DNA of 56,983 bases, taken from positions 1-56,983 of the IMG/VR virus record IMGVR_UViG_3300008261_000022; one strand, written 5' to 3'. Shown one piece after another: positions 5,802 through 47,610 of the stretch. Under the pieces are notes generated by a model that ran no database searches, had not been told where the DNA came from, and was given only the letters and a program-made list of their open reading frames with translations. This DNA is from a virus. Taxonomy: Duplodnaviria; Caudoviricetes. Every line of letters starts with the position of its first letter. Position 1 is the stretch's first letter. The position numbers were made by a program, and so were the translations under genes.

Positions 5802-6142
5802 TATTCGCTCGGGCTAATTACATCTAGGTTTCCATTGGTTTCCGGGTTGTCGTTATTGCCTTGGGTAGAGATCAAAAACTGCCCATAACCGCCTGTCTGA
5901 AGCGCAGGCTGCACATTGGCAACGCTTACATCCGGTCTCGGGAAGCGAAGATTGATCCTCTCCGTCTTCCTTGCAGGTAATCTATAAGGGTCAAACTCAT
6001 CCTTGCAACCCTCATCACAGACCCGAAGGCCTGGGAAGTTAGGATCTGGCCCCATATCCACATAGGCTCGCTTCATCTTGCATCGATCACAGATTGCAAT
6101 CGCTACCGATGAGAGTCCACGAGTGTCTAAAAATCGGGGCAT
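5801..6142 (-). CDS. Virion-associated protein with CxxC/CxxxC
   Basis: AICDRC...VCDEGC...PRPD; coupled (TAATG) to the adaptor and fibre genes. Confidence 0.65.
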   Translation of the reverse strand: MPRFLDTRGLSSVAIAICDRCKMKRAYVDMGPDPNFPGLRVCDEGCKDEFDPYRLPARKTERINLRFPRPDVSVANVQPALQTGGYGQFLISTQGNNDNPETNGNLDVISPSE

Positions 6143-7215
6143 TATCTTGTGTACACCGAAATATTAGGTGCGTAGTAAATAGGCGACTTATCCCGCTCTT
6201 CTTGCTCAGCCTCATAGATGTACTGATCGGCCATCTTTTCTAGGTACCCGATCCGGTCTGGAGCCACATTAGGCAACTCCAAAGCCATCCGGTGGGCAAG
6301 CATAAAGACTGTGGCCTCATACCACCTTTGGGGCACTTCAAGCTCATTAGTAAGAGCGCCCACATCCATGATCTGCCTGGAATACCACACCGTCATCTGA
6401 ATAAAGGGGTCAGAGGGCACCGGCCATAGGTACATGGTCGGCTGAGGAATAGTGCGGTCAAACCAATATTGGTAGGGCTGATTGGCCGTAAAGTTTTGAT
6501 TTGGGAGGTTTGTGTAGTCATCCCGGTTCAATCGAGCCATTTGGACTAGGCGAGCATTATTTCCTATATACCACTCCCGAAGGGCTAGGATCGTTCCGCT
6601 ATAGGCTCTAATGCGGTAGTACTCCACATTCTGTCCGGGATCGACATCAGTCCATATCCACTCATTGTCGGTGACCGCTACTTGCCCCAAGTCCTCAAGC
6701 GTGTTCCAGGTACTTCCGTCAACCGAATACTCAAAAATGATAGACCAAACAGAACTACCACCGCCTGCAATGTAAGGCAGAAAACCAATGGAGCCAGCAT
6801 AAATTGGGTTATCGGTTCCAAAGGAGACTGAGATGTTTCCGTTGGCCGTGGTTTGCTGACAATAAGTGTCAATATCGGAGTCTGCGACGAAGCCAACGGT
6901 ACCTCCTGCGCTAGTAGCATAGTTCCCAACAGGGCGGTTCATCGTGCGGTAAAGCACATTTAAGGCATCTACCGAACCGAGGGGTAAAGAATAAATGTAC
7001 TGATTGGCCTTTAAGCCAAATACTTTTTTGCTGATTGCCCAATAATTTATGCCCTTATTTGCAAGAGCAGACAAGGCAAAAAATAGAGACTCTCGAGCAG
7101 ACACAACTTGCTCTGAAGTTAGCTCTTCAGCGAGCTTTCCACATCTCCGTGCTCCATGGTCGATCATCGTTTGAACATTGATGACCGTGGTTCCTACGGT
7201 TCCTGAATAGGCCAT
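6142..7215 (-). CDS. Head-tail adaptor (tail tubular protein A-like) with inserted beta-sandwich domain
   Basis: N-terminal helical segment, YTNLPN..QPYQYWFDR..LWPVP C-terminal part; central EYSVDGSTW..YYRIRA discoidin-like insertion; position after head genes. Confidence 0.6.
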   Translation of the reverse strand: MAYSGTVGTTVINVQTMIDHGARRCGKLAEELTSEQVVSARESLFFALSALANKGINYWAISKKVFGLKANQYIYSLPLGSVDALNVLYRTMNRPVGNYATSAGGTVGFVADSDIDTYCQQTTANGNISVSFGTDNPIYAGSIGFLPYIAGGGSSVWSIIFEYSVDGSTWNTLEDLGQVAVTDNEWIWTDVDPGQNVEYYRIRAYSGTILALREWYIGNNARLVQMARLNRDDYTNLPNQNFTANQPYQYWFDRTIPQPTMYLWPVPSDPFIQMTVWYSRQIMDVGALTNELEVPQRWYEATVFMLAHRMALELPNVAPDRIGYLEKMADQYIYEAEQEERDKSPIYYAPNISVYTR

Positions 7216-13510: not shown

Positions 13511-13948
13511 CTATATGAAGGCTTTCATGGATAGTGGGTCGCCGGTCAATTTGGCTATCACTTCGTGGTCGTTGATCACCATAAATAGTGATGGCTCTTC
13601 GTCAGGCTTGCCCGGAATAGGCACTTCCCATCGATCACCGCCCCATTTAGGTACTCGTATGTAATCGCCCACTTCGCACCAAGACCCCTCAGGCCATGGT
13701 TCCATGGTGTCGCGCTTACGGAACGCCAATGGCCCAATCTCTAAAACTTGGGCGACCATGTTGTTCCACTTTTCGGTTTCTTTAGTTTCTTCAACCAAAA
13801 TAATCCCTGCGCTTGTTGCCTTCTTTTTTGTGCGCCGCAACTGAACCAAAATGCGAGCACCAAGAGGTTTAGCACCGGGGTCTACGCTCGGAAATGCCCA
13901 AGCCAACTCAGCGTTATCACACGCTACCGGTTCATTCATCTTCATCAT
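13511..13948 (-). CDS. groES: GroES-like co-chaperonin (cpn10)
   Basis: KPLGARILV...TSAGIILVEETKE...VLEIGP...VGDYI...INDHEVIA match the cpn10 pattern. Confidence 0.85.
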   Translation of the reverse strand: MMKMNEPVACDNAELAWAFPSVDPGAKPLGARILVQLRRTKKKATSAGIILVEETKETEKWNNMVAQVLEIGPLAFRKRDTMEPWPEGSWCEVGDYIRVPKWGGDRWEVPIPGKPDEEPSLFMVINDHEVIAKLTGDPLSMKAFI

Positions 13949-14117: not shown

Positions 14118-14278
14118 TTTTTCTTAGTAGCTTGGCTTAGCCCCCCTTTCGACTGAGATTTGGTTTTCGACTCGGTTTGGGTCGATTTCATGGTTTGGCC
14201 ATCAAGCGGAACGCCCATAGCCATGCGCTTGTGCTGCTGAACCAAGTCGCCTTTTTGCTCTTTGTCGTAATCAGACAT
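14114..14278 (-). CDS. Small basic protein with C-terminal SKGGL motif (not in ORF track)
   Basis: Hand translation MSDYDKEQKGDLVQQHKRMAMGVPLDGQTMKSTQTESKTKSQSKGGLSQATKKK; AAGGAG RBS; overlaps portal stop and next start. Confidence 0.7.
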   Translation of the reverse strand: MSDYDKEQKGDLVQQHKRMAMGVPLDGQTMKSTQTESKTKSQSKGGLSQATKKK

Positions 14279-16823
14279 TTACATCTCCTTTTTTGATTAA
14301 CTCCACGGCGGACTTATCCTGGTCGAACTTCAACCGGGCCGCATCACGGGTTAACCGTGCCGTTTCGATGCGTTCCTTCATCTCCAAATCGCCCATGGCA
14401 ATAGACATCTTGTACTTCTGCTCTTCCATGGCCAATTCGTAGTCTTTTTGCAACCTTGCCATCTCGCGCTCTGCATCGGCGGCCATCTCCCGATCCTTGA
14501 GTTGCATTTCGGCTTGGTCGCGCTGGGCGCGGCGCTGGGTCTCTGCCATGGAGGTATCGAGCAGAACCTTGGCATCCGCGGTGAGGGGAGGTTGGGGCTT
14601 GTACTGCTGAGCCGCTTGGATCATCTGCTGAATCGTCGGCATGATGCCCTGCAAGGTCTCTTCGCTGTCCAAGCTGATGTGTTGGCCGGCCATGGAGTAG
14701 AGCCTGTCGATGTCCTTTGGATTGACCGCCAAAGCATAATTCTCGTGCAGTTCGCCGCCCAAAGACTTGCTGACATAGCCCTTTGCCCTGCCCAAATACC
14801 ATAGAACGATGTGCTGCTTGATGTGCTCCATGGCCTTAGGCATAAACTGAGGCGCAATCAATGGGTTACCCCCGAATACAGGGTCTTTAGCGAAGTCTAG
14901 GTGGCTCTGTATATGAGCCAAGTGGTCTTGCTCAGGGTAGGCAAATGCGGCCGATCCAAGGGTCATAGCCACATTCTCATTGGCAGAGTCCATCTTCTTG
15001 GGAGCCGGCACATCGATCATCAACTCATTGACCCCAGGTACCTTGATCTGCTTTAAGAACCGGGAAATCACGGCCTTGCGGTTAAAGAGGTCAGGGTTTT
15101 GCTGCATGATGGCCATAACCGCTTGGGTTTGAGCCATCCGTTGGGTTTCAGAGAAGATATGCGGGTCTGAGACCGGGACAATGTCGGTAGTCTTGGCAAA
15201 ATCATCGCGGGTGACATTCAGATCCTGAACGACATCACCTTTTTTCATGTCATCCAGGTACCAGCGGTTAATCCGCCCCAAAATCCTAAGAACTCTGCCC
15301 TGAGACTCATGCAAACGGGCATGGATTGAGGAAAATACCGCCGCACCCTGCTCAATTAGCGCCTGAGTCGTGCCAACGGGGGTGTTTTGCCCCACATCTG
15401 CAATCTTTTCCTCAGCGGTCGTAACCACGCCCTTAGCCGCGTTGGTTAACCAGGCCAAAAGCTGGTACAAAACGGGGCTTGGCGGGTTAAACGGCATCGG
15501 CATGGCCAGTTTGCGGACATCATCCACCCCCGGAGCCGCTTCGATCTCAGAGACTTGGGTGATTTCCACTTGTTGGCTCTGACCCGACACCTTTGCGCCC
15601 TTTAACTTTAAGAGTGTGGCGGCGTTGTTGATGTGGGCAGAGTCTAGGAGGGCGCGAAGCGAGCCGGTTAACGCGGCGGCTAAGCCCCCAATGAGGTGGG
15701 GAAGACCTACGGCATAGGCACCACGCCAAGGAATGAACTTAAACTCCACAATCCATTCCAATTTGGTCATGGAGTCATCGCCCTCTTCCCAATTTCGGTA
15801 TAGGCCAAGGACTTCGTTGTCCAATTCGTCAATCATCAAGATGTAGGGAGCCATCTCCCCCTTGGAATACTTGTCCTCAGGCACCTCTAGGAAGGTGTAG
15901 ATGTGATAAACCCTGCGGACACCGTCTTCGTTCTCATCTGGCTCTTTGCCTTCGACCTTTAGGTTGGCCTTTTCTGCGGCAGACTCATCAGGGTAGGCGG
16001 TTGCCCGTACCATGGAGATGTCTCGATAGAGGTTGGCGTTAATCCGGCGCTTGAATTCGTACTGCGTTATGTCCTGAATCTCCGTAACCCGTTGGGCGGT
16101 GTAGAAGTTCCCGGCAGCAAACGGCAGCAAAACATTGTCGATAGGCAGGAACTCAGCGCACGGGCGCTTTTTGCGCTCGTCGTACCACAGTTTCATGTAC
16201 TGCGAGCCACCCAAGGGAAGCTGGGTGAGCATCTGCTCCTCTTCATCACGGAACTCTTCGATTTGCTCCGTGAGCTGCCAGTTCATCCAATCCCGTTTGC
16301 GCTCTGAAACGGCCATCTTTTCATCGTTTACCTCACCCAAAATCTTGGTTTTAGTAGGACCATCGGGCGGAAACATTTCCTTGATGGCTCTAGCGGCAAA
16401 GTCAATACAAGCCTCAGCCATGATGGGGTGAACCACCTTGGAGGCACCGCTGAAGGTCGCTCCGCCGGGGGCATCGTTGCCCATTCCTGTCCGCCGGATG
16501 CCCTCTTCGTACTGCTCATCGCGCTTTTTGCGGCTTTCCTTGTCATTTCTGATAAGGGTTTGGTACTTTAGGGCGATGCTTTTGAGGTCAAAAAGGTCGA
16601 TGTCCTCGTCTTCGGCCAAGTTTTGGTAGAAGTCTTCGTTCTCCATTGGCCCTTTGGTGGGCATCTTGACCACGGCTGAGCCATCAGGGAGTTCCTCAAT
16701 GTCGGCCTCTGTCAGTTCGGGCAACTCAACCTCAGTCTCCGCACCCTGCTCTTCCATGGTTGGGTCAGGGATGCCTTCAACGAAGCGATTAAATTCGGGA
16801 TCTATTGGGAATTCTTCAGCCAT
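14271..16823 (-). CDS. Portal protein
   Basis: 850 aa; VVHPIMAEAC..F.ARA..E.FP..GP, DWMNWQLTE, GAYAVGLPHLIGG, PVGTTQALIEQG; C-terminal coiled-coil barrel. Confidence 0.85.
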   Translation of the reverse strand: MAEEFPIDPEFNRFVEGIPDPTMEEQGAETEVELPELTEADIEELPDGSAVVKMPTKGPMENEDFYQNLAEDEDIDLFDLKSIALKYQTLIRNDKESRKKRDEQYEEGIRRTGMGNDAPGGATFSGASKVVHPIMAEACIDFAARAIKEMFPPDGPTKTKILGEVNDEKMAVSERKRDWMNWQLTEQIEEFRDEEEQMLTQLPLGGSQYMKLWYDERKKRPCAEFLPIDNVLLPFAAGNFYTAQRVTEIQDITQYEFKRRINANLYRDISMVRATAYPDESAAEKANLKVEGKEPDENEDGVRRVYHIYTFLEVPEDKYSKGEMAPYILMIDELDNEVLGLYRNWEEGDDSMTKLEWIVEFKFIPWRGAYAVGLPHLIGGLAAALTGSLRALLDSAHINNAATLLKLKGAKVSGQSQQVEITQVSEIEAAPGVDDVRKLAMPMPFNPPSPVLYQLLAWLTNAAKGVVTTAEEKIADVGQNTPVGTTQALIEQGAAVFSSIHARLHESQGRVLRILGRINRWYLDDMKKGDVVQDLNVTRDDFAKTTDIVPVSDPHIFSETQRMAQTQAVMAIMQQNPDLFNRKAVISRFLKQIKVPGVNELMIDVPAPKKMDSANENVAMTLGSAAFAYPEQDHLAHIQSHLDFAKDPVFGGNPLIAPQFMPKAMEHIKQHIVLWYLGRAKGYVSKSLGGELHENYALAVNPKDIDRLYSMAGQHISLDSEETLQGIMPTIQQMIQAAQQYKPQPPLTADAKVLLDTSMAETQRRAQRDQAEMQLKDREMAADAEREMARLQKDYELAMEEQKYKMSIAMGDLEMKERIETARLTRDAARLKFDQDKSAVELIKKGDVNV

Positions 16824-16835
16824 CTTATGGTTTCC

Positions 16836-19800
16836 TTAATTCATAGCGTGGGCAAGACCGCCCTTTTTACGCCCTGTTAGTTTTTTCTGCATCTCTCGGT
16901 ACTTCATGGCGCTATCTAACCAGCTTTGATCTAAGTCTTGGAGCGGGGCAAACAACTCCAATGACTTATGCGCTCCCTCCGGTGTTTTACCCATCAGGCG
17001 CTTAGCCTCAAAGTGGGTTGGGTACATTTGCTCAACAGGCAATTGATTCTCAAAACTTCCAAAGTAATCCCCGCCCAAATCGAGCGGGTAGGTTGAATGG
17101 CCTGATTTTTCAAAGATAGTGGCTTCAGGATCAAGGCGGGCGATGGTGTAGCCCGATGCGCCACGCTCAACATCCAAGAGCTCAGGATCGGTCACGGCCA
17201 ATCGAGTGGCCGCCACATCTGGGAACCCTCTCTTTTGGAATCCGGCCTTGGCCATAGCCTTTACAAACGCATCCCGTTGGCCACCAGGTCCTGTGATTAG
17301 TTTGTCGCGCAACTCCGGGTCTTCAAGCCCTGGGAAATTGGGAGCCTTGGGCTTGCCACCTTGACCCTTGACCGCTTTGACCGCGGCGTTAAACGCCTCA
17401 ATGTCTTTCTTGCTGAAGGCCGATATGTCCATCTGATTGAGCAACGCTTCGGTCATCATGGTGTTGAAGTCCACCGACAGGGGACTCATGGCCGTATACA
17501 CCCCGTAGATTGGCTGGCCGGACTCCCTTGCCATTTTGATCCGCTTGGCAAGCATAGATAGCACCCCTTGGCCGGAAGCCCATGCAGAGCCGGGATGGAG
17601 CCTCATAAAGTCCGGGCCACCCTCCAAGATCACATTCATGGGGGTACCTTCGATTTCCTGAATGATCCTTCCCGCTGCGGCTCTGTCTCCGGCAAACGGT
17701 ATGGCTATGCCGTTTTGTATATCTTCAGGGGTAATGATTTTCCTTGGGAGGAGTTGAACCGATGGATCATCAACGACCTTCGATTTGTATTCCCCAATCG
17801 GCTTGGCTAATCTAGTCTCTGAGATGTCATGCCAATAGCCAGCGGCTTCGGCCTCAGCCTTGCTCATCCGCTTACTAGCCTTCTCTGCGGCCTTGGCAAT
17901 CTTGGCTATCCCGCCCTTGGCCATCCGCTCTTCATGCCAAGCCTTTAACTTCTCATCTTTGACTAGGCCACCCTTTTTGTAGGACTGCCCAATCTTCACA
18001 TCTGACTTTAAGTTGGCGGGCAGATCCATAACCCATATGCCGGTCTCAGCCTTGTTAGCCTCTTTCAAGGCTTTGTCTTCAGAGTAGCCCCCGCCCAATC
18101 TCTCATTGGTGTTGGGATCTCTCACCTCATACCACATGACTTCATCGCCAAAGCCATCTACATCACCGGTTGGCTCAGAGGTCACATCGTCATAACCGTA
18201 TCGTTGAACGGCCACGCCCTTACGCTGCGGCTTGACCCCGTACTTTTTATATTGCTTTTCCAAGAACTTGGGGTAGACATCATCGTAGTACTTCTTCATC
18301 CCCTCGCCGCCGATGTCTAAGCCTTGGCCGGAGATAACGCCCTTATCCATCTCCATAACCTTCTTGCCTACGGCTTTGCCAACAACATCGGTAATTGGCT
18401 TGCCTACCGCTCGATCAAAGTGTCTTTGGGTGGAGCTTGTGACCATGCCATCATCATCTACGCCAAGCACAATAGTGCCGCCGCCCTTGGTTTGAATACT
18501 TACCGTGCGCTTGCCATCACCCTTCTCAACGCCGATAGCATCTACCTTCCGGCTTAGGGCATAGCGGTTTGCCTGTTCTTTTCCGCCGACTATGGCCACG
18601 GCATCGTAGTCATTGTCTGAGGCGTACTTTACAGCCCGCTTTAGAGCAAGCTGGTACCAATCTTCTTTGAACGGAGCATCAGGTACGCCAAGTAACTTTT
18701 GGCTACCAATCCAATCATCGTATTCTTTGGTCAGGGCATTGATGGAATCTAGATTGCTTTCATCTGTTTCTGACCATCGGTTGCTGAAGTTTTTCAGCCA
18801 TTCAATTTGGTAAGGTGTCATTTCGGTGCTATGCAGAGCAATCAACTCATCTGCATCCCGCTTGGGCATTGGCCTATTTGCGCCGTACCCCTTGTCCCGA
18901 CCGGCTTGGTGCCAATCCGACTGCACCTCCTCAATGACTAAGGTTTTCTTACCATCGATGTCCCTATCCTGCATTCGGATGTGAGCTAGAACATTTGGCT
19001 CTTCCCAATGAGGTGACTTGTAATCTACTCCCGATGCGTTTTTCAATGTTACGGGTTGGGTCGGGAGCGATGGATCGATCTTGGCATCTTTAATTGCCTC
19101 CTCAATCGTATTTCCGGTTCCGCGAATATCGGTGCGGCCATCAACTACATACCATCCTTTGTTCACATCAAATGTCGTACCACCAAAAACTTGACTTTGA
19201 GGCAAGATTTCCCAATTCTTTGGGATATTCACAGTTATCTCAGAGCCCTGTTTGATGTTGGTTGGCAAGGTCAGTAAGAGTTCCCGATAGTTCTTCCCGC
19301 CCGGAAGGTTCAAGTCTTGAGAGTCAAACTTAGGGGGTGGGTTATCTAAGTACCGCTTTTTGGTTGTCTCAAACCAATCCAAGTCTTCTTGTGGTATGTC
19401 GTAAAAGCCTTTTGAGATCAATGTCTCAAGCTCATTCATCTTGTTGATCTCGGCCTCAGTCATGTTTTGGGCTCGGACAACCTCTTGAACTTGGATCTTG
19501 TTGTTGTTGATGTAGTCCACCACCTCATCTTTGGTGACCGCAGTCTTGGACTTGAGCCACTCCGTAAGCCCGATAGCCTCTAACTCATCCTTCTTAACCC
19601 CTGGTTGCTTAGTGATGTCGTTTAGGAAAGACTGCCCTGAGCCTGACTTACGCTGCAGATTGACTGCCGCCTTCTCAGTCGCTGAGTAAAAGCCCAGCTC
19701 ATCGGCAGGCACCTTGACCTTGCCTGATATGGCTTCGGCGGCTGATGGTGCGCCGGCAGGGGGAACGGTAGATCCACCCACGGGAAGGTTCCTTAGCGAC

Positions 19801-22800
19801 TCAGGGAAGGCCGAATCAATCTTCTTGCCCGCCCGTGCTACCGCCCCGGAAACTTGTCTGCCGATACCTGGGATGTAGGTAACTGGCCCCAACTCAGGCA
19901 GGAACGGTACATCAGGGATCTTGGATGTCTCAATGGCTTTTGAGACCGGGGCAAGAGTCTCTCCGACATTTGTCAGGTACTCAATGCCGGCCTCCGATTG
20001 GGGTAGGGGAGTGCCCTCCTCAAGTTCTTTGATCTTCTGCTCGCCGCCAAAAAGCCCAACGAAGGGCTTGGCTAGCTCTTGGCCTACGATTGATTGGATG
20101 GTGCGAGCGGTCTCATACCCACCCCTCAACTTGTCAGCAAAGGGCAGTTCAGATACCCGCTTAGACTTGGCCTGCGCCTCTTCTTCTCGGGCGCGGTTCT
20201 CGTCTTCCATCATTTGGCGTGCAACCACGCCTTCGGGTCCGGGCGACATGAACACGGGAACCCCGGCGGCCATCTGTTTGCGGATCTCATCCCTTGGGTC
20301 ACCACCGGCTTGCATCTTGACCGCCCCACCGCGGGCGAACTTCTGTTCCTTGAAGTCTTTGCAGGGTCGGCTGCGCTTTAACTGCCACCCCTTGGGCTGG
20401 GTAACTAGGCCGCCCTTCTTGTAAGGCTGGCCCTTGACTGCTGAATCCTTGAGTTTGGGGGTAAGCTCAATCACATAGACCGGTTCGGTTATGTCTCCGT
20501 AACCTTTATCTACCGATACTCCGCGGCCGGTTTTAGTCTCTGCCTCATAGAACTCCCCGCCCATCTTCTTGGCGTACTTCTCAGCGAACCTCTTGAGTTT
20601 GTTGTCGTAGAACGCCTTCATCCCCTCTTCGCGGGGGGCGACCACTCCTGTATCCTCTTTTTGCATCTTCGCCCAAGTCTTCTTGGCGATCCGGTCTTTC
20701 TGATCCTCAGATAGCCCACGGGTAGTTGCATCTACGATCCGGCGCAGTTCCTCCTCAGATGAGACTTTTTCATTGCGATTCTCATTGAGCAGACCTCTTG
20801 CTCGAGCCTCGGCCTCAAGATTGATCCGGCCTGCAATACCGCCCCGTTGCTCTGTGGCAGCAACCTTCCATTCATTCCCGCCTTCCATCTTCTGCCAAGC
20901 AATCTCTTGGGTTCCCCACCGCTTGATCTGAGCGGGGGAGGCTGAGAACCCTACGCGGTCATAGCCATTCTTTGCGGCGTAGGCAAGGATGCGCTTAACG
21001 CCCAGCTCATGCCAATTGTCTTTGTACGGGGCATCCGGTAACTGCTCTTCAAATTCTAAAAGTTTTTTACGAACACCCTCAAGTTTTGCTAACTGATCTT
21101 TCCACCTTTGGTTCAATACTTTTAGTTGTGGGTCATCTTTTACTTTATCGGTGATTTCATACCAACTCAGTTCTGCGCCCGTTTCTTCCTTTATCTTCTG
21201 TTTGAGTTCTTGCTTAATTTTTTCGTTGTAATCATCGTATTCTTCTTGAAACTTTCTAAATTTTTCTGTTTCGGCTCGCTCTTCCTGAACGACCTTTTCC
21301 CTCGCCTCAACATTTGCCTTATCAAAATAGCCGGCCTCATTGCCCCGCTGATGCCAATCAGACTGCATCTCATCCACATAGAGCATCGGCTTTCCATCGG
21401 TCGTGGTTCGATCCTGAACCCGCATATGGAGGAGGACATTGGGTTCGCTCCAATGTGACCCCTGAACATCAGTAAACTCATGATCTGGATAAGAACGGGG
21501 GTTTACAATAAGTAACAACTCCCGGTAGTTTTGCCCGTTGTCTAATTGGTAGTCTGCAAAGCGGGTTTCCCCCTCGCCCATGAGTCCTTGGAGCATGGCA
21601 TCTTCTCTAGCCGCCCCCTGAGCCGACTCAAAGTCGCGATAATCCCCACGGCCTACCGGTATGTCATCAGGATCTTTAAGGTAATACCCCATGTCATCAC
21701 TACCGACGATGGTATATCCAGCAGAGTTTCTCCACTCATATTCGGGGCTTTCGTAATACTCTGACTCAGCTTGGTTGTAAGCTCTTTCCTTGATTCGCTC
21801 ATCAACCTCTTCATCAATCCGGCTTAGGATATTGGGGTCTTCAAGATCTTCCGGAGAATACTCATCCATGATTTCTTCACGGATTTTTTCCCTTGACCCT
21901 GGGAAATACTCATCAAACTCAAGGACATAGTCATCAGAACGGTCGCTGATATAACTGTCGTTTTCAATAACCCTTCCATCCCCGAAATCAAAGTCATTAT
22001 CATTGAAGTCGCCCTGCCTGTACTCAACCTCCGCAAACTTTATCTTTTTGTTGTCGATGTAGTCCCGAATCTCATCTCGGGTGACCGACTTCTTGCCTTG
22101 TAGGAAATCATTAAGATCGGCGTATTCCAGCTCATCATTGGACACCCCGGCCTTCTTTAGCTCAGAGAGGAAAGCCTCGCCAGACCCCTGCTTTCTCTGC
22201 ATATTGAGGATGGCCTTCTCCGCGGGGGAGTACAGACCTACCTGATTGGCCGGAGCCTTGACTGTCTCAGGCTTGGCCTTGACTTCCTTGGGCGTAATGA
22301 CCTGTTCAATTGATGGGCCAACGGCTTCCATCGACAGCCCGACCGGCAGCGGGGGCAGCTCCTTAACCTTATCCAAGGCACCGCTCATCATGCTTTGCAC
22401 CTGGGGCTTGACCCCGCGGACACCAGCCAATTGGGCTAACTCCGGCATGATCGGGGGGATCTTGTACTTAGTCTCAATCTCTTCTAAGAACTTGCCCACA
22501 TCCTGAACATAGGGCATCGCCTCAGCGGATATGTCGCCCGGAGCCATGAAACGCTCCACGGCCTCTTCCCCCGCCCGGATACCCTCTTGACTACCGAACT
22601 TCCCTGAGCTCAAGGTTCCGTAAAGGCCGACAAACGGGGAGACCATGCCCTTGGCTAGGCTCTTGCCGATAACGCCGGCCGCCTCAGCCCGCGGATCTGT
22701 CCTCGACTCCCGGTCACCGGAGAGCGCCTCAAGCATGGCATCGATCTCGCCCCCGGACTGCATCCGAACCTCGCCCCCGGCCTTCATGCCTTCAGGGTTC

Positions 22801-23768
22801 AGTTGAGCCTCAACCATCGCAGCGTTCATCCCTGGGTAGTACTTGACCAGCTCATCCGCTCCAATCTTGCCCTCCTTAAACGACTGTATATCGGATGATC
22901 TTTTCGCCTGGGCTTGTTGGCTCTGCGTATAGGAGGCAGCACCACCGGAAGCGGCGTACCAATCTTTGAGGTTCTTATCAATTGCGCCGCCTTTGGCATA
23001 AGGGATGCCCGTACCGCCACCCCATACCTCAGGGGCAACTTCGCCGCCCTCAGCAAATTGCTCGGGTAGGGCACGGCGCAGGTCAATGATGTCGCTTGTA
23101 ATATCCTCTGGGTTCACAAGCAGGGGGTTGCCATGCTCACGCGACAAGGCTTCCAAGTACTCCTGCCGGGAGCGGCGTGGCAAAGCCTCGCGCACAGACC
23201 CTCTTGGCAGAGTGCGAACCAAGGTTGATTCATCACCTAACTCTTCTAACGCCCTCATACGATGGCGACCTTCATGGCCTGGGATGTTTAGGTATGCGGA
23301 GCCTTTTGGTTTGCCTAGCTCAAGGAATGGCACATCCTCAAACCCCTTATCGCGGGCAATGACCCCTAACTCTCTGACATATTCATCGAGGGACTTGTTT
23401 CCCTTGCTCATGTCCGAACCCGACACATTGAGCGGGGAGGCAAAATTCTCAAAGTCTCCCGGCCGCATGATCATTAGGGTTTGGGCGTTATCCCCTCTAA
23501 GGGCGCTGAGCAAAGCCTCATCATCATATTGCCGATAGATATTTGGCACTTCATCAAAGATTCGCTCTAGCCGTTGAACCCCGTATTGACCCTCGCGCTC
23601 TCTGACCTGCGGCTCAAGAGTCTTGTACTTAGACTTCTTGGCCATGTCCCGCGCCGCGCTGACCGCCTTCTCGCTTGCCTTCGTGGCAGCCTTGGCTGTC
23701 TTCTTAGCAATACCGCCGCCTGCCATTTGGCTTTCGTACCAGGCTTTGAGTTTGAGATCAGGCTTCAT
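16836..23768 (-). CDS. Giant modular (polyvalent/polyprotein-like) protein: ParB-like module, two paralogous E-x-QSDWHQ modules and a C-terminal module, separated by xxGG motifs
   Basis: 2310-aa ORF between terL and portal; internal duplication visible; GHEGRHR motif. Confidence 0.85.
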   Translation of the reverse strand: MKPDLKLKAWYESQMAGGGIAKKTAKAATKASEKAVSAARDMAKKSKYKTLEPQVREREGQYGVQRLERIFDEVPNIYRQYDDEALLSALRGDNAQTLMIMRPGDFENFASPLNVSGSDMSKGNKSLDEYVRELGVIARDKGFEDVPFLELGKPKGSAYLNIPGHEGRHRMRALEELGDESTLVRTLPRGSVREALPRRSRQEYLEALSREHGNPLLVNPEDITSDIIDLRRALPEQFAEGGEVAPEVWGGGTGIPYAKGGAIDKNLKDWYAASGGAASYTQSQQAQAKRSSDIQSFKEGKIGADELVKYYPGMNAAMVEAQLNPEGMKAGGEVRMQSGGEIDAMLEALSGDRESRTDPRAEAAGVIGKSLAKGMVSPFVGLYGTLSSGKFGSQEGIRAGEEAVERFMAPGDISAEAMPYVQDVGKFLEEIETKYKIPPIMPELAQLAGVRGVKPQVQSMMSGALDKVKELPPLPVGLSMEAVGPSIEQVITPKEVKAKPETVKAPANQVGLYSPAEKAILNMQRKQGSGEAFLSELKKAGVSNDELEYADLNDFLQGKKSVTRDEIRDYIDNKKIKFAEVEYRQGDFNDNDFDFGDGRVIENDSYISDRSDDYVLEFDEYFPGSREKIREEIMDEYSPEDLEDPNILSRIDEEVDERIKERAYNQAESEYYESPEYEWRNSAGYTIVGSDDMGYYLKDPDDIPVGRGDYRDFESAQGAAREDAMLQGLMGEGETRFADYQLDNGQNYRELLLIVNPRSYPDHEFTDVQGSHWSEPNVLLHMRVQDRTTTDGKPMLYVDEMQSDWHQRGNEAGYFDKANVEAREKVVQEERAETEKFRKFQEEYDDYNEKIKQELKQKIKEETGAELSWYEITDKVKDDPQLKVLNQRWKDQLAKLEGVRKKLLEFEEQLPDAPYKDNWHELGVKRILAYAAKNGYDRVGFSASPAQIKRWGTQEIAWQKMEGGNEWKVAATEQRGGIAGRINLEAEARARGLLNENRNEKVSSEEELRRIVDATTRGLSEDQKDRIAKKTWAKMQKEDTGVVAPREEGMKAFYDNKLKRFAEKYAKKMGGEFYEAETKTGRGVSVDKGYGDITEPVYVIELTPKLKDSAVKGQPYKKGGLVTQPKGWQLKRSRPCKDFKEQKFARGGAVKMQAGGDPRDEIRKQMAAGVPVFMSPGPEGVVARQMMEDENRAREEEAQAKSKRVSELPFADKLRGGYETARTIQSIVGQELAKPFVGLFGGEQKIKELEEGTPLPQSEAGIEYLTNVGETLAPVSKAIETSKIPDVPFLPELGPVTYIPGIGRQVSGAVARAGKKIDSAFPESLRNLPVGGSTVPPAGAPSAAEAISGKVKVPADELGFYSATEKAAVNLQRKSGSGQSFLNDITKQPGVKKDELEAIGLTEWLKSKTAVTKDEVVDYINNNKIQVQEVVRAQNMTEAEINKMNELETLISKGFYDIPQEDLDWFETTKKRYLDNPPPKFDSQDLNLPGGKNYRELLLTLPTNIKQGSEITVNIPKNWEILPQSQVFGGTTFDVNKGWYVVDGRTDIRGTGNTIEEAIKDAKIDPSLPTQPVTLKNASGVDYKSPHWEEPNVLAHIRMQDRDIDGKKTLVIEEVQSDWHQAGRDKGYGANRPMPKRDADELIALHSTEMTPYQIEWLKNFSNRWSETDESNLDSINALTKEYDDWIGSQKLLGVPDAPFKEDWYQLALKRAVKYASDNDYDAVAIVGGKEQANRYALSRKVDAIGVEKGDGKRTVSIQTKGGGTIVLGVDDDGMVTSSTQRHFDRAVGKPITDVVGKAVGKKVMEMDKGVISGQGLDIGGEGMKKYYDDVYPKFLEKQYKKYGVKPQRKGVAVQRYGYDDVTSEPTGDVDGFGDEVMWYEVRDPNTNERLGGGYSEDKALKEANKAETGIWVMDLPANLKSDVKIGQSYKKGGLVKDEKLKAWHEERMAKGGIAKIAKAAEKASKRMSKAEAEAAGYWHDISETRLAKPIGEYKSKVVDDPSVQLLPRKIITPEDIQNGIAIPFAGDRAAAGRIIQEIEGTPMNVILEGGPDFMRLHPGSAWASGQGVLSMLAKRIKMARESGQPIYGVYTAMSPLSVDFNTMMTEALLNQMDISAFSKKDIEAFNAAVKAVKGQGGKPKAPNFPGLEDPELRDKLITGPGGQRDAFVKAMAKAGFQKRGFPDVAATRLAVTDPELLDVERGASGYTIARLDPEATIFEKSGHSTYPLDLGGDYFGSFENQLPVEQMYPTHFEAKRLMGKTPEGAHKSLELFAPLQDLDQSWLDSAMKYREMQKKLTGRKKGGLAHAMN

Positions 23769-23825
23769 TGATGCACCGATAAAGTGATAAGCGAGATTGT
23801 CCCGCCTTCATCAATTGCTTGCCAC

Positions 23826-25247
23826 TCAGGATGCATATGGATTCTCCCTCTTCTTCCATGCGCCTGAGTCGATGTAGTCTTCCTCGTCATAGTCTTCCTG
23901 AGGCGGCGGGTCGATCTCAAGCCAGCCGGCATCCCGCAGGAACCGCAGCGCCTGGGTGCAGGCATCCACAAAGTCATCATGAGTGGACTCAGGGAAGGAG
24001 CATATCTGTGAGACAAAAGGCTCAGCCCAATCCCGGACATAGCCTTCCTTGACCGTGCTCTCCGGTATCCACACCCTCCCTCGAGCAATGATGTTGGACA
24101 CGATATTGAGGCGCTGAACCTTGTCCGCATTCCCTGGGTTATATGCCCTGACCGGCAGGTGGGCCCGCTGCAAGTCCTGGATCAGGCTAATGCCAGCCGA
24201 CTTGTCCTCAACCAAGATCAGGTCAACCCGCTTCTTTTCCCTGCCCTCACCGAAGATGGTGTCGTACTCCTCAATGACCTTTGGCCGCAGGTCGGGGTAT
24301 TGCAGGCGGTCTTGCCAGCAGTCAATCACCATGACCGACATCGGGCCATCCACGGGCTTGAACACCCCCCAAGTAATGCAGGCGGTTGGGTCGTTGATGG
24401 TCTTTTCCGTATAGGCGCAGTCATAGGACTGAACGATGTACTCAAATTTGGGAAAGGCTTTCTGAGCCGGCCAGAGCTTGAACATCTCCCGCTTGACGAT
24501 CCCGGACTCCTCCGGGTCGATGATCTCAGCGTAGATCTCCTGCCTTCCCAGCTTCGTTCCCTCATATTGGAGGATCTGCTTTTGGAAGGAGGGAGCCAGA
24601 TTGGCGAGATTGTCATAGGTTGAGGCGGTAGTCAGCACCACATCATTGCCCTCCCGCCCTACTAGATCCACGATCAGGTCTTTAGGCTTTGGGGTTGTCG
24701 TACAGATAATCCGGGTCTTCTTGCCTAGTCGCACCCCGAACATGATCTGATCCCAGGCCTCATCGAGGTAGTCCCAAGCGGCCAACTCATCCAGCCATGC
24801 CCCGTGGAACTGTGGCCCCCGGAACCGCTCTGGCTCCGAAGCTGGGATGCCTTTGATCAGGGAGCCGTTAATCAATTTAAGCTCATGGAAGGCGCGGTTG
24901 TAATCTGCCACAAGTGAACTGGGTATAACTGATAAAAGCCCTGAGTCCCCTTCAAAACAAGTTGCTCTGACATCGGAGGAGGTTGGTGCGCCCACCAGCC
25001 AGCGAGTGCCTTCCTCCTGCCATGCCCACCACCCCACTTGCTCCGCAGCCGTCCTGGTCTTGCCGGCACCGCGGCCGGCGAGCATAAGCCATATCGTCCA
25101 CCAATCCCCAGCCGGGATAACCTGGTGCCTATGCGCCTTAGATACCCAGTTAGCCCTCCAAGCCCAGGCGACCTGATCCTCAGGCTTGAGTTGAGAGAAT
25201 TTGGCCTGAGTGTCCGGGTCTTTAAGGATCTCAAGAACTTCATCCAT
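23826..25247 (-). CDS. terL: Terminase large subunit
   Basis: Walker A AGRGAGKT, Walker B WLDELA, motif III TTTP, nuclease acidic residues (SYDCA, VEDKSAG, HDDFVDA). Confidence 0.95.
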   Translation of the reverse strand: MDEVLEILKDPDTQAKFSQLKPEDQVAWAWRANWVSKAHRHQVIPAGDWWTIWLMLAGRGAGKTRTAAEQVGWWAWQEEGTRWLVGAPTSSDVRATCFEGDSGLLSVIPSSLVADYNRAFHELKLINGSLIKGIPASEPERFRGPQFHGAWLDELAAWDYLDEAWDQIMFGVRLGKKTRIICTTTPKPKDLIVDLVGREGNDVVLTTASTYDNLANLAPSFQKQILQYEGTKLGRQEIYAEIIDPEESGIVKREMFKLWPAQKAFPKFEYIVQSYDCAYTEKTINDPTACITWGVFKPVDGPMSVMVIDCWQDRLQYPDLRPKVIEEYDTIFGEGREKKRVDLILVEDKSAGISLIQDLQRAHLPVRAYNPGNADKVQRLNIVSNIIARGRVWIPESTVKEGYVRDWAEPFVSQICSFPESTHDDFVDACTQALRFLRDAGWLEIDPPPQEDYDEEDYIDSGAWKKRENPYAS

Positions 25248-28639: not shown

Positions 28640-28936
28640 TTAGTCGGGTATTACCTTTAGCCGGTCATTTTCAAATAGCCACCCCACCGTCTTGCGGTGC
28701 GCCATTTCCCAGATGTCCACCCGATCCTCCTTGCTCATCTTGGAGCCTTGGTCTAGTTGCATATGGCACCCGTAGCACAGAGCCGCTATCCGGTAGTCGT
28801 GAGCCTTGATCCCGGTGCCCTTACCATCCCTTTGCTGATTGCTATGAGCGGCCACCACGGTTCCATCCTGCGCCCCGCAAAGCTGGCAGGGGGCATCCCG
28901 CACGACCTCTAAGAGAGGTTTATTTCGGTAGTTCAT
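28640..28936 (-). CDS. YbcO/DUF1364-like Zn-binding putative nuclease
   Basis: CQLC...VVAAHSN...GTGIKAHD..IAALCYGCH. Confidence 0.75.
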   Translation of the reverse strand: MNYRNKPLLEVVRDAPCQLCGAQDGTVVAAHSNQQRDGKGTGIKAHDYRIAALCYGCHMQLDQGSKMSKEDRVDIWEMAHRKTVGWLFENDRLKVIPD

Positions 28937-30590
28937 TGACCATCCTTATCCGCTCCCCGATCCACCGCATGACCGGGACCGCCATTGAGTTGCCCAAAGC
29001 CTTGTACCTGGGGCCATCCGGGCATAGGGCAGCCTCCTTGCCCCGCCAAGGAATCAGGGTATGGTCATCCGGAAAGCCTTGGAGCCGCTCACATTCGCGG
29101 GGGGTGAGCCGCCTCACGGCCATCGATGCCTGGTAAACCGCCCCGACTTGTTGGGTAACTTCTGAAGACTGAGGGCTACGGCTCGGATTATTGGTGGCGG
29201 TTAGCGATGGGGCGGCAACATGGCACGGCCCATCAGCCCTCAGGGTAGGGGTGTGTTCTACGGACTCTCCCATGCTGCGGGTCTTCTCTGACTGGTCCCC
29301 ATTAAAGGCTATCGCCGGCGGGTTACCGCCCCCTTGGCCCCCCAGCTTCAGCGTTGGGGAGACATCAATCTGACAGTCCGGAACGCTCATATTTGAGGAA
29401 AACGCGACCATCTGATTGTGTTTAAAGGTGGTGTTCGTAAGGGTGTGGGCAAGGTCAGAGCTCGCCTTTGGTGTTTGTTCTGAGGTGAAGGCGATGGCGT
29501 GTTTATCGCCCGCGGTCAGGGTTGGGCACGGGTCGCCTGGTTTACCTACCCCCAAACCGTTGCCGGCTCCATCCCCGTTCCGGGTGTCGCCCCCGCCTTG
29601 GTGTCGGGTAGCCTTGTCATGGATTGGGATTGTCTGCACTACCGCGTGGGTGGTTCTAGTGTCGCCCTGATCGAATAGATTGATGGTATTAGCCACCTCC
29701 CCATCCACCCAAGACTCATCATCATCTACGCTTTGAGCTCGCTTAGACTTCCTGAATGGAATCGGCTGAACCACGGCCGCAAAGTTACCTTTATCTGGCA
29801 TAAATTGGTCATGACATCGAGTTGTCAGGCTTGCCGCGCTCTCAGCGCCATCCCACCAAGTTGGCAAAAGTTGGCCACTTTGGGCGTACTGATGATCTAA
29901 CTTTCCCCCTCCGCATTGCCGGTCAAGGGTTCCGGCGGTTTGTGGGATAAACCATTCATCTTCGCAGTTGAACCCGACACGACTGACGCCAGTGCCTGAT
30001 GCAGAGAGGGTGGGAGTGACTTTCCTCGCTTCTCTGCTCGGCGGAGGATTCCCCGACAGGCTTGCGAGCTCAAAAAGAACCGCTGCGGCATCTCGCCAGT
30101 TTCCAAGACATCCGACAACGAACACACGGCGGCGTCTTTGTGCCACTCCAAAGTACTGAGCGTCAAGAACTCTGTAGGCAAACCCATACCCGAGTTCTCC
30201 CAACATTCCGAGGAAGGCACCAAAATCTTTTCCTCCGTTAGATGACAAGACCCCAGGGACATTCTCCCAAACCAGCCAACGGGGAGAGAGGTGGCGAGCA
30301 ATGGCACCAAAGGTGAGCATGAGGTTGCCACGCGGGTCATCCAATCCTTTTCTGAGTCCGGCGACAGAGAAGGACTGACAGGGGGTTCCTCCGACAAGAA
30401 GGTCAATTGTTCCAAGATTCCACTCCTTAAATTTGGACATATCCCCAAGGTTAGGGACTGTTGGGTAATGGTGCTTGAGCACCGCAGATGGGAAGGCATC
30501 AATCTCTGAGAAAGCAACCGGCTCCCAACCCATGTGGTGCCACGCCGATGTGGCCGCTTCGATGCCACTACAGACCGATAAATATTTCAT
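28920..30590 (-). CDS. DNA (cytosine-5) methyltransferase
   Basis: Motif I SVCSGIE, IV GGTPCQSFS, VI WENVPG, VIII QRRRRVF, IX RRLTPRECERLQGFPD, X YKALGNS. Confidence 0.95.
   Translation of the reverse strand: MKYLSVCSGIEAATSAWHHMGWEPVAFSEIDAFPSAVLKHHYPTVPNLGDMSKFKEWNLGTIDLLVGGTPCQSFSVAGLRKGLDDPRGNLMLTFGAIARHLSPRWLVWENVPGVLSSNGGKDFGAFLGMLGELGYGFAYRVLDAQYFGVAQRRRRVFVVGCLGNWRDAAAVLFELASLSGNPPPSREARKVTPTLSASGTGVSRVGFNCEDEWFIPQTAGTLDRQCGGGKLDHQYAQSGQLLPTWWDGAESAASLTTRCHDQFMPDKGNFAAVVQPIPFRKSKRAQSVDDDESWVDGEVANTINLFDQGDTRTTHAVVQTIPIHDKATRHQGGGDTRNGDGAGNGLGVGKPGDPCPTLTAGDKHAIAFTSEQTPKASSDLAHTLTNTTFKHNQMVAFSSNMSVPDCQIDVSPTLKLGGQGGGNPPAIAFNGDQSEKTRSMGESVEHTPTLRADGPCHVAAPSLTATNNPSRSPQSSEVTQQVGAVYQASMAVRRLTPRECERLQGFPDDHTLIPWRGKEAALCPDGPRYKALGNSMAVPVMRWIGERIRMVNELPK
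29897..30340 (-). CDS. Alternative-frame ORF nested in the methyltransferase gene (putative beta subunit)
   Basis: CSLSDVLETGEMPQRFFLSSQACRGILRRAEKRGKSLP resembles a C5-MTase small-domain segment; start codon uncertain (frame open up to 30568). Confidence 0.6.
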   Translation of the reverse strand: MTRVATSCSPLVPLLATSLPVGWFGRMSLGSCHLTEEKILVPSSECWENSGMGLPTEFLTLSTLEWHKDAAVCSLSDVLETGEMPQRFFLSSQACRGILRRAEKRGKSLPPSLHQALASVVSGSTAKMNGLSHKPPEPLTGNAEGES

Positions 30591-30836: not shown

Positions 30837-31169
30837 TTATACTCCGCCCCTACTTTTGTTTCTATTCGCACAGGGCCATACTTGCTTGAGCGCATCGGTA
30901 ATTAACATATCTGCGCTTTTATGGCGTATGCCAGGGTTGGCTTCAATATAACTTCTGGCAACATCCCTCACTTGCCCATTGGTTACACCGGCTGGCGGGC
31001 AACTAAAGACGTGTTGTTGGGCATCGCTGACCCCGGCCACATAGCCCAATGCAAACATCCTTTGGACTACTTCCTCGCTATTCATTCTTGATAACAAATC
31101 GTTACCGGTTAAAAATTCGGCGCTTGCCATACTTGGTAACAACAAGATTGCAATTAATGTTTTTTTCAT
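30837..31169 (-). CDS. Secreted Rap1a/Tai4-like immunity-family protein
   Basis: Signal peptide MKKTLIAILLLPSMASA; TGNDLL...GYVAGVSD...CPP..VTNGQV...YIEANP..RH.SA..LI..AL...WPC. Confidence 0.75.
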   Translation of the reverse strand: MKKTLIAILLLPSMASAEFLTGNDLLSRMNSEEVVQRMFALGYVAGVSDAQQHVFSCPPAGVTNGQVRDVARSYIEANPGIRHKSADMLITDALKQVWPCANRNKSRGGV

Positions 31170-37542: not shown

Positions 37543-38883
37543 TTACGGAGCAATCGTTTCGCTAGTCTGACCTAGCGGAGCCTTGCTCTGATTTTCTCTC
37601 ATGTACTGAATTAGTGGCGCGGTGATGGCCAACGGAATCCCTACGGGAGCGGTTGGGGGGAAGGCTGACATAACCGCACCGGTTGCCCCAAGACCGGACA
37701 GACCCATCTTCATGTAGTCTGGCTTTTCTTTTCCGGCCTCGCTTGCCATTGAACCCAACTCACTTCCAGCTTGGGCAAACGCCAAGGGTGGCGCACCGTA
37801 CTTCATAACCGTGCCGCCTATGGTTCTCATCCTTGAGCCTGGTTCAATCATATCCCTGAATAATTTTGTAACCTCATCAAGGCCACTACGGGGAGGTGGG
37901 GGAACGGGCTTGGTCGCGGGAGCACTTCTTGGGTATAGCACCCCAGATGGGGTTGCAGTCATCCCAGGTGATTGAGCAAATACTTGGGATGCACTCTGAG
38001 GAACCACTCCTGACCTTTGTAAGGCTCCGATGTTTTGAGCGGCTTCTTTGGCTCGCGCAGCCTGTTGGGCGGTCTCAACATTAAATCCCGCCATGCGAGC
38101 TCTTCCGGTCGCCCCAGAATCAACATCGGTTGTGCCCTGAAGGATTCGATTGGCTTGGGTAGCCTCTGAAGCTAGGTTTGGTGCCATCGACCCACCAAGA
38201 GGAGGACTTGCGGATAAACGGCCTTCCTCAGCCGCTTGGCCTAAGAGCCTCGCCGCTCTACCGGCTACCGCTGGAGCAGCACGAAGAGCAGTTAAGGCAG
38301 TACCCGCACCGGCTCCGGCAAGCTCACCCCGACCGCGGGCAGACTTCTCCCGAACCGCATCAATTTGCTTTTGAAATTCAACAGAATCTTGGCTTTGAGT
38401 AGGCTCAAATTCTGAGCTCACAGGTTTTTCAGGCTGTGCGGGCGCAGCGGTTGCTGTCGGGAATGCCCCGTAGCCCTTCAAATCTTTTAAATAATTGACT
38501 GTTATGTCAGGGAGGGTTGTTCCTTTGGATGTAAAAAACGGGTGGTTGATCCCTGCGTTATATCCAGCGGCGGCCAATCGAGCATCGCCCTCGCTCATAT
38601 CCAAGGACTTCTTCAGATACTTTATCCCTGCCTCAATGTTCTTTTCGGGGTCACGGATGTCTTCCGCTGAGAACCCAACCTCTTTGGCGGTATCGGGCTT
38701 GATCTGCATGATCCCAATCTCGCCAGCTCCGCCTGCCTGAACCTTAGGGTTGAGACCGCTTTCCTTGAAGGCCACGGACACGGCAAGTTCTGGAGACACC
38801 CCCATCTGCTTAGCCTTAGCGGCAATCCGTTGGGCGTAGGATTTTTGAGATTCGTTGAGGTTTTCGTAAAAGCTCAGATTCAT
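37543..38883 (-). CDS. Virion ejection protein with N-terminal lytic transglycosylase (SLT) domain
   Basis: KESGLNP, GIMQI, AGIKYL, YNAG motifs; last gene of late operon. Confidence 0.88.
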   Translation of the reverse strand: MNLSFYENLNESQKSYAQRIAAKAKQMGVSPELAVSVAFKESGLNPKVQAGGAGEIGIMQIKPDTAKEVGFSAEDIRDPEKNIEAGIKYLKKSLDMSEGDARLAAAGYNAGINHPFFTSKGTTLPDITVNYLKDLKGYGAFPTATAAPAQPEKPVSSEFEPTQSQDSVEFQKQIDAVREKSARGRGELAGAGAGTALTALRAAPAVAGRAARLLGQAAEEGRLSASPPLGGSMAPNLASEATQANRILQGTTDVDSGATGRARMAGFNVETAQQAARAKEAAQNIGALQRSGVVPQSASQVFAQSPGMTATPSGVLYPRSAPATKPVPPPPRSGLDEVTKLFRDMIEPGSRMRTIGGTVMKYGAPPLAFAQAGSELGSMASEAGKEKPDYMKMGLSGLGATGAVMSAFPPTAPVGIPLAITAPLIQYMRENQSKAPLGQTSETIAP

Positions 38884-38892
38884 AATCTACCC

Positions 38893-40443: not shown

Positions 40444-40445
40444 GA

Positions 40446-41543: not shown

Positions 41544-41545
41544 TT

Positions 41546-47344: not shown

Positions 47345-47610
47345 GAGACCGATCCTGGGTTCACCGAAGCCAACAAAGCCGCCGCCCAATCAAACCAATT
47401 GTCATAGTTGTCGGTCGATGGAATTGCTTCATTAGTAAAGATATCGATAGCCTTTAGGCCGTTGCCCCACAACTTCCAATCGGTGAGCTGGGTGGGTATT
47501 TCCAATTGTTGAGCCGTATATTGCTCGCACATCAAGGCCGCCCAAGATTCAAAGGTATGGAACCGTGGGTCATAGATTAGGGGTTGCCCCGCTTGGGCAG
47601 AGATCGTCAT
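47341..47610 (-). CDS. Small Trp-rich virion-module protein
   Basis: ATGA coupled to nozzle gene. Confidence 0.65.
   Translation of the reverse strand: MTISAQAGQPLIYDPRFHTFESWAALMCEQYTAQQLEIPTQLTDWKLWGNGLKAIDIFTNEAIPSTDNYDNWFDWAAALLASVNPGSVS

Follow-up and report, generated by a model that had tools for sequence, protein, structure and literature searches.

The 56,983-bp virus record IMGVR_UViG_3300008261_000022, analysed here as a window covering the whole record (a complete virus, CheckV completeness 100), carries between its terL and portal genes a minus-strand gene for a protein of 2310 amino acids (aa). We propose that this giant protein is a polyvalent cargo protein without a MuF domain, assembled from mobile cassettes that end in the motif ΦxxGGxV and probably packaged into the virion and injected, a reading to which we assign a probability of about 0.6. 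The protein is modular, its modules are shuffled among related phages, and the motif at their ends is conserved.

The reading frame is open over all 2310 codons, with no internal stop; it starts 57 nt past the terL stop and ends 12 nt before the portal ATG. An earlier note on this DNA had described such an open reading frame (ORF) between terL and portal, and the coordinates, the open frame and the flanking genes, identified by PHROG and Pfam matches, agree with that description. Gly-Gly motifs punctuate the translation: MAGGG at aa 15-19; FAEGG, YAKGG, AASGG, MKAGG and MQSGG within aa 239-340; YKKGG, FARGG and MQAGG within aa 1116-1156; YKKGG and MAKGG within aa 1930-1953; and RKKGG at aa 2300-2304. 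Every one of those quoted in the earlier note was located at the place given. The same was true of the copy of the N-terminal leader that it had reported ahead of module D, along with a partial copy: aa 1940-1965 repeat leader aa 6-32, matching at 20 of 27 positions (hand count), and the partial copy lies at aa 265-276. The only cysteine of the protein sits in junction L2. The division into modules and junctions is given in Table 1.

Table 1. Segments of the giant gene and genes referred to with it (window positions; aa numbers refer to the 2310-aa protein)
Feature	Position	Strand	Description
Whole giant gene	16836..23768	-	2310 aa plus stop
N-terminal leader, aa 1-19	23712..23768	-	MKPDLKLKAWYESQMAGGG; also opens relatives P0002, P0004-P0008
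Module A cassette, aa 20-243	23040..23711	-	Ends LPEQFAEGG; Lys/Ala-rich helix, then domain with invariant GHEGRHR..A and PRR
Junction region L1, aa 244-345	22734..23039	-	YAKGG, KNLKDWYAASGG, GGEVRMQSGG (aa 331-340 = 22749-22778); motifs and breakpoints
Module B, aa 346-1118	20415..22733	-	Ends KGQPYKK; N-terminal extension and core (~aa 505-1118) paralogous to module C
Junction L2, aa 1119-1160	20289..20414	-	GGLVTQPKGW...FARGGAVKMQAGGDPRD (GGAVKMQAGG = 20301-20330); motifs and breakpoints
Module C, aa 1161-1932	17973..20288	-	First ~190 aa low-confidence; core aa ~1350-1932 = 17973-19721, predicted GNAT-like
C/D junction, aa 1933-1966	17871..17972	-	GGLVKDEKLKAWHEERMAKGGIAKIAKAAEKASK, internal leader copy; motifs and breakpoints
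Module D, aa 1967-2299	16872..17870	-	Predicted PUA-like barrel (YTH/ASCH/EVE type) with helical insert
C-terminal tail, aa 2300-2310	16839..16871	-	RKKGGLAHAMN; low confidence in model
terL	23826-25247		PHROG match; terminase Pfam matches
portal	14271-16823		PHROG match
Basic head-module protein P0416, 304 aa	8784..9698	-	Repeated [YF]KKGGx[VA], ends RRGGKC; 35 homologues in related loci

The breakpoints of BLAST alignments with 32 relatives clustered at query residues 228-263, 1118-1156 and 1931-1967, which are the three internal GG clusters; the remaining ones fell in variable loops within modules B and C. GG motifs thus stand at all three module borders defined by homology. The earlier note had placed xxGG clusters at the module boundaries. 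Their positions coincide with these independent breakpoints, but the pattern xxGG proved too loose, the real element being ΦxxGGxV with or without a following MxxGG. In P0002 (94% identical) module A is missing and the leader, MAKGG, is joined directly to AVAPEV...; in P0004-P0006 (89-91% identical) an ART-PolyVal cassette that follows IPYAKGG and ends in ITKAEGG replaces A. P0012 consists of ART, A, one B-type module and D, P0017 and P0022-P0024 start with D, and P0011 lacks D. Homologues of the modules also occur alone or in other settings: those of A form 400 clusters of proteins of 134-2437 aa, in which the domain may take any position, 725 stand-alone proteins of 424-1351 aa (many of ~700 aa) match module C, and 26 match module D. 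It is precisely at the GG junctions that relatives have acquired, lost, relocated or split modules, in agreement with the modular layout first described. Neither of two patterns that the earlier note had named as counter-evidence was seen: the relatives do not keep one full-length architecture, and no confident predicted domain crosses a junction in the models of modules C and D.

The same picture emerged from the terL-portal interval, whose comparison across relatives the earlier note had called for and in which module gain, module loss and stand-alone genes were all seen. Eighty viral loci were gathered through their portal genes (59-100% identity), and 74 places hold both terL and portal. 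The interval spans 1430-7661 nt in these and contains one or two large ORFs, hereafter slot ORFs, of which 77 are unique; the 414 other ORFs served for comparison. A, ART, C or D is carried by 33 of the 77, in many differing orders. Pfam searches of 31 further slot ORFs returned PcfJ in 9, ART-PolyVal in 4, RadC in 1, a canonical GNAT in 1 and nothing in 16. In five loci (L016, L017, L018, L071 and L083) a separate C-type gene adjoins the portal, behind another large ORF. Across loci L004-L083 the slot gene is unrelated from locus to locus, with portals 59-100% identical. The capsid protein is almost invariant in the related loci (35 homologues; E 1e-188 to 1e-205 for 31 that are full-length). 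Variable slot content together with a near-invariant capsid protein thus marks the terL-portal interval as a hypervariable cargo slot in a conserved head module.

Plain GG enrichment was rejected as a signal. The giant protein holds 29 GG dipeptides at 9.3% Gly, and slot ORFs contain 10.3 GG per 1000 aa versus 9.2 in the other ORFs. The conserved element reads Φ-x-x-G-G-x-V, often continued by (K/R/H)-M-x-x-G-G to give GGxVxMxxGG. In the form GGx[VI]x[MF]xxGG it occurs 58 times in slot ORFs versus 7 times elsewhere (0.68 vs 0.039 per 1000 aa, 18-fold), and 4 of these 7 cases lie in homologues of P0416. Among 113 module-A domains, drawn from clusters that share less than 50% identity, 111 end in ΦxxGG, typically as LPDIYAxGGxV (LP[DE][IV][YF]AxGGxV), stand-alone proteins included. 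Five of the 111 continue for no more than 15 residues beyond the GG, and P0332 stops right after the motif (...FKKGGKV). Other cassettes have endings of their own: ITKA[EK]GG for ART, KGQP[YF]K[KE]GG[LA]V for fused B/C and RKKGGLA for D. Of 52 unique C-termini from portal-adjacent slot ORFs, 43 have xGGx[VIAL] in the last 45 aa, whatever their domains; the figures were 26 of 332 for other ORFs and 159 of 1673 for windows taken from the interior of these slot ORFs. A conserved tail often follows this C-terminal motif, for example ISNNLDAMRLELLRKKHA or YKKGGKVRISNNLDAMRLELLRKKHA, and many slot ORFs begin, in the first 30 aa, with LRERLGLKDGGxVxMxxGG. The idea that the junctions arose by recent duplication of DNA was rejected, internal direct repeats being at most 87% identical over at most 35 nt. 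With DNA repeats this weak, the motif is taken to be conserved as protein sequence.

Domain content and homology place the giant protein, which lacks MuF, in the polyvalent-protein class (Iyer, Burroughs, Anand, de Souza and Aravind, 2017, PMC5512222). Among 7995 scored candidates, 175 proteins of 1270-4043 aa matched it at E<=1e-3. Near relatives (54-94% identity) resemble it in length, and PF18760 (ART-PolyVal) is present in many; the domains of distant ones include LPD38, LPD1/3/5, RadC, ddrB-ParB, InPase, MuF_C and PBECR. The Pfam entries found in relatives were PF18760, PF18857, PF18796/98/99, PF18763, PF18823 and PF04002. This domain set is the vocabulary of polyvalent proteins as described by Iyer et al. 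(2017, PMC5512222), which upholds the link to this class first suggested in the earlier note. The giant protein itself combines at least three unrelated domain types: A, the GNAT-like B/C and the PUA-like D. A search of GenBank phages gave 10 weak partial matches and no full-length relative. Like P1 DdrB/DarB, N4 vRNAP and phi24B gp47, the protein is giant, multidomain, shuffled and encoded in the late or structural gene block; unlike these polyvalent proteins, it has no metallopeptidase, no MuF and no detected Pfam polyvalent domain of its own, and its gene lies between terL and portal, not after portal. Phage_Mu_F (PF04233) was found neither in the giant protein (E<=1) nor in a six-frame search of the 56,983-bp genome, the latter a search that did match control genomes; the earlier note had likewise recognised no MuF domain. 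MuF-fused polyvalent or minor head proteins of the SPP1 gp7 / Mu gpF type are encoded beside the portal gene and are thought to carry cargo into the head, a subject taken up in PMC5512222. The giant protein shares with them a portal-adjacent gene and differs by the absence of PF04233 from protein and genome.

Modules B and C, whose paralogy the earlier note overlooked, are identical at 209 of 753 positions (28%, E 8e-55). It follows that the KGQxYKKGGLV ends of the two modules are copies of one another, as are their GGxVxMQxGG starts. A model of module C computed with 82 relatives reached a predicted local distance difference test (pLDDT) score of 68.6 and a predicted template-modelling (pTM) score of 0.61, with most of the core above 80 and the first ~190 residues at low confidence. 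In VIA-align this model matched 18 chains at Z>=8 (best Z 10.8, root-mean-square deviation 2.9 over 136 residues), and nearly all of the 50 rows listed belong to the GNAT superfamily, among them the toxins AtaT and TacT and, at Z 7.5, the anti-CRISPR protein AcrVA5. The model thus assigns the B/C core (~580 aa) a GNAT-like fold with large inserts. The predicted core fold is that of the GNAT acyltransferases AtaT/TacT and AcrVA5 (Z 10.8 to 7.5); B and C differ from known GNATs in their length of ~580 aa with large inserts, in a non-canonical cofactor loop and in giving no GNAT match in a Pfam search of the two modules. Two RimI-like GNAT families have been described in polyvalent proteins (Iyer et al. 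2017, PMC5512222), and the B/C core is not detectably either of them.

The family shows an invariant polar cluster of H, N, H, R, D and R followed by E-x-QSDWHQ (H1587, N1592, H1596, R1598, D1601, R1602, E1614, Q1616, S1617, D1618, W1619, H1620 and Q1621), and in the region of the cofactor loop only R, G and Y are conserved across 83 sequences. The core is likely an enzyme, its chemistry not being fixed by the partial cofactor loop. Ahead of the core, the N-terminal extension of module B has its homologue in the first part of module C, which is modelled at low confidence and is likely flexible. These extensions (aa 346-505, 22254-22733, in B; aa 1161-1350, 19719-20288, in C) share the stretches PFVGL[FY]G and G.FLEE[IL]ET.YKIPP, which stand-alone relatives such as P0168 also carry and which may represent a further linear motif. 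LPD38-bearing giants likewise contain the B/C core (profile positions ~190-715), centrally placed and outside their Pfam domains; two of these giants have two copies. As a function, the name 'endolysin' attached to phrog_7348 was rejected: this 2564-position profile describes fused giants, and only aa 1580-1744 match it.

Module D gave a model with a pLDDT of 88.9, for which VIA-align listed YTH domains in 9 of the 10 top rows, the best at Z 8.3 over 142 of 157 residues, a value near the level that unrelated models often reach according to VIA-align. Matches to ASCH, EVE, McrB-N and 5-hydroxymethylcytosine-reader domains came next. A search of the Protein Atlas with module D returned no usable match. 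On this modest Z, module D is assigned a predicted PUA-like fold of the YTH/ASCH/EVE-type modified-base reader clan. It would have this fold in common with YTH, ASCH, EVE and McrB-N readers, from which it differs by an unrelated sequence and a helical insert at module aa 163-260. The phage encodes a C-5 cytosine DNA methylase (28920-30590, minus strand, 556 aa; Pfam E 6e-54, the match being split in two stretches). Because of this enzyme a DNA-reading role of module D is plausible, with methylated phage DNA as a possible ligand.

Module A has neither a family nor a fold assignment. Its invariant GHEGRHR..A occurs as GHEGRHRxRAL, which we take to resemble a ParB box, and its Protein Atlas feature score to Sulfiredoxin/ParB_N was 0.82, all leads for this module scoring below 0.9. 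An assignment to ParB was unsupported: Pfam found no ParB match in 18 module-A members, and hhalign against the ddrB-ParB segments of 6 relatives gave a probability of 0.09. Kinship with ParB or sulfiredoxin is thus a lead only.

The motif has a second carrier in the head module. P0416, encoded two genes downstream of the capsid gene, is a low-complexity protein rich in Gly, Lys, Ala, Pro and Met (K 16%, G 15%) and is probably disordered. It has a strongly conserved N-terminus, MGQFKPMVKMMTTEPSVELKLKKGG, a C-terminal Cys, and 9 GGx[VIAL] sites with repeated GGYKKGG; its repeats read LKLKKGGKV, GGYKKGGKV, YAKGGII, GGYKKGGAA, YAKGGAV and FKKGGAV. A family search with P0416 returned no match.

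Packaging and injection of the giant protein are inferred from the position of its gene in the head gene block and from the precedent of phi24B gp47, a protein of 2811 aa with LPD5, LPD1, LPD38 and MuF-C that was detected in virions by mass spectrometry (preprint 10.64898/2026.04.10.717836). As this precedent suggests, the protein would be loaded into the procapsid and leave with the DNA, and its modules would work at an early stage in the host, as enzymes that modify targets or bind nucleic acid. The motif would then consist of a flexible GG hinge and a short docking peptide. The latter would anchor any cargo to a putative invariant partner in the virion, be it portal, capsid interior or scaffold, thereby taking over the role of MuF, and would perhaps be clipped afterwards. 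We hold this view of the motif tentatively, at somewhat less than an even chance. Docking is favoured because the motif persists at the ends of proteins, where a cut would set nothing free; because the residues after GG are conserved, the tail staying constant while the cargo varies; and because no protease was recognised in the 47 other ORFs searched with Pfam or the 33 searched with PHROGs. Co-folding of the portal (alignment A4) with the last 49 residues of module D gave no answer (score 0.00, mark 0.32) and weighs neither way on binding.

In phage T4 an N-terminal capsid-targeting sequence, present on internal proteins and on Alt, is cut after Glu by the prohead protease gp21. That signal, too, is a short terminal peptide on unrelated cargo, including an ADP-ribosyltransferase; the motif described here differs in being GG-based and mostly C-terminal or between domains, and no prohead protease was found by Pfam or PHROGs. 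Targeting followed by clipping, as in T4, would combine docking with cleavage. A bolder generalisation, doubtful at present, is that ΦxxGGxV (with or without MxxGG) and the C-terminal tail form a portable cargo code, by which any domain carrying it, alone or chained, would enter the head through one constant partner, perhaps with later clipping at GG. On this view counter-defence enzymes destined for injection would be plugged into the terL-portal slot, and P0416 would be a multivalent user of the same code.

Several points weigh against the proposal of a packaged and injected cargo protein. Packaging, injection and the docking partner are postulated. Searches of Pfam, NCBIfam and PDB sequences with the whole protein and with each module returned no match, and profiles A1-A3 gave nothing usable against PDB sequences. 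The fold assignments are remote: with Foldseek neither the model of module C nor that of module D matched anything in PDB at E<=1e-3 (the top weak rows for C were also GNATs), and the Z of module D is the borderline value given above. In the B/C core the acetyl-CoA loop, Q/RxxGxG/A, is half matched, as RDKGYG after the strand in C and NEAGYF in B, and an insert of ~80 aa separates it from the next helix; a loop so incomplete and split makes transferase activity uncertain. Finally, the motif is not universal, since stand-alone B/C proteins end in KGQPLFAAAPIGAG..., without KKGG.

The Gly-Gly junctions could also be read as cleavage sites. A Gly-Gly-specific protease would cut after the junction GG, freeing module-sized effectors from a true polyprotein, the reading put forward in the earlier note, and would cut P0416 into small peptides as well. 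The model would be the GG-X processing of African swine fever virus (ASFV) pp220/pp62 or of adenovirus core precursors by a dedicated virus-encoded cysteine protease. The likeness extends to Gly-Gly at module borders and to a basic, GG-rich companion protein; unlike in those viruses, no processing protease was recognised among the ORFs searched in this phage, where cleavage is a proposal only. The junctions do have the form Φ-x-x-G-G plus a small or hydrophobic residue and lie exactly at module borders, the 19-aa leader ending in GGG recurs internally, and the N-terminus of many slot ORFs looks like a removable propeptide. Autoproteolysis has been argued for some polyvalent proteins, such as P1 DdrB (Iyer et al. 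2017, PMC5512222). Against this, the giant protein joined the other ORFs searched (47 with Pfam, 33 with PHROGs) in yielding no recognised protease, the only peptidase families found in the phage being M15 of the endolysin type and S74 tail-fibre chaperone domains; a protease of the host, or one encoded by an unannotated ORF, is possible. Furthermore, the motif ends stand-alone proteins 2-15 residues before the stop, where cutting would free nothing, and the residues that follow GG are themselves conserved. We therefore consider a polyprotein rather unlikely.

Gly-rich linkers are common in multidomain proteins, and the GG stretches might be nothing but flexible hinges that travel with the cassettes and mark tolerated recombination sites, with neither partner nor cleavage. 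This would fit the low confidence of the junction surroundings in the models of both module C and module D and the shuffling breakpoints that fall there. A hinge, however, needs no fixed sequence, yet 111 of 113 module-A domains retain LP[DE][IV][YF]AxGGxV, GGxVxMxxGG is enriched 18-fold, the motif persists at the very ends of proteins, and the weak DNA repeats point to conservation of the protein. Passive linkers are for these reasons unlikely.

The giant protein might alternatively belong to the structural or ejection machinery, as part of a trans-envelope conduit or internal body, and not be an effector bundle at all. Such a role has been proposed for phi24B gp47 by the authors who detected it (10.64898/2026.04.10.717836). 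The gene is large and lies within the head gene block, and the core of module C matches part of gp34 of Pelagibacter phage HTVC028P (E 7e-13), encoded among internal-virion-protein genes. The hypervariability of the slot next to conserved portal and capsid proteins nonetheless fits accessory cargo better than essential machinery, and relatives carry enzyme domains (ART, GNAT, RadC). The phage has, moreover, a separate ejection-type gene block at 37543-46177, with an SLT lysozyme, a DNA-ejection-protein match and a 1543-aa protein, that probably is the true ejection machinery. We regard a structural role as improbable.

Directly after portal, at 13511-13948 (minus strand), lies a gene for a Cpn10/GroES-like protein of 145 aa (Pfam E 1.3e-5), whose presumed mobile loop, KKATSAGIILVE, is similar to the giant protein's K-x-GG-[ILV]-[VI] motifs. 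That these motifs mimic the GroES mobile loop and enlist the host chaperonin in refolding the giant protein after ejection, a thought suggested by this portal-side protein and by what we take to be the likeness of its loop to GroES mobile loops, is very hard to credit, the resemblance being a short, low-information pattern.

Further features of the genome concern its setting. Two SU10-adaptor-like proteins (PF24175) are encoded on the minus strand, at 6142-7215 (E 6e-4, below the family cut-off) and at 51082-51723 (E 1e-25); these matches point to a podovirus with an SU10-type tail, and the phage would belong to the podovirus group with such adaptor proteins. The 1543-aa protein of the ejection-type block, a second giant (41546-46177, minus strand), matched no family, and the same block includes a predicted metal-dependent hydrolase (46652-47389, minus strand; PF10118, E 1e-43). 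A 110-aa ORF at 30837-31169 (minus strand) matches Rap1a, a family of type VI secretion immunity proteins (E 1.3e-19), which is unusual for a phage. An ORF of 121 aa at 23765-24130 (minus strand) was treated as spurious: it shares DNA with the 3' part of terL, read in a different frame, its end falls within the beginning of the giant gene, and no family matched it.

The polyvalent class itself is already known. What appears to be new, as far as searched, is a MuF-less version in the terL-portal slot, three unannotated domain families and the shared GG motif. The words 'linker' and 'glycine' occur 0 times each in the main text of PMC5512222, the supplementary domain lists lying outside this count, and literature searches on large polyvalent proteins with Gly-Gly and on LPD38 found nothing on such a motif.

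Polyvalent proteins are regarded as toolkits that phages inject. A short tag common to unrelated cargo domains would provide a testable rule for the loading or processing of cargo that lacks a MuF anchor, and such a tag may also help in loading foreign proteins into phage heads. The analysis also marks three abundant unannotated domain families for annotation, namely the B/C core (725 relatives), A (400 clusters) and D, with fold-level leads for two of the three, GNAT-like for B/C and a PUA-like reader for D. If the portable cargo code holds true, tailed phages would possess a MuF-independent, encapsulin-like system of cargo loading.

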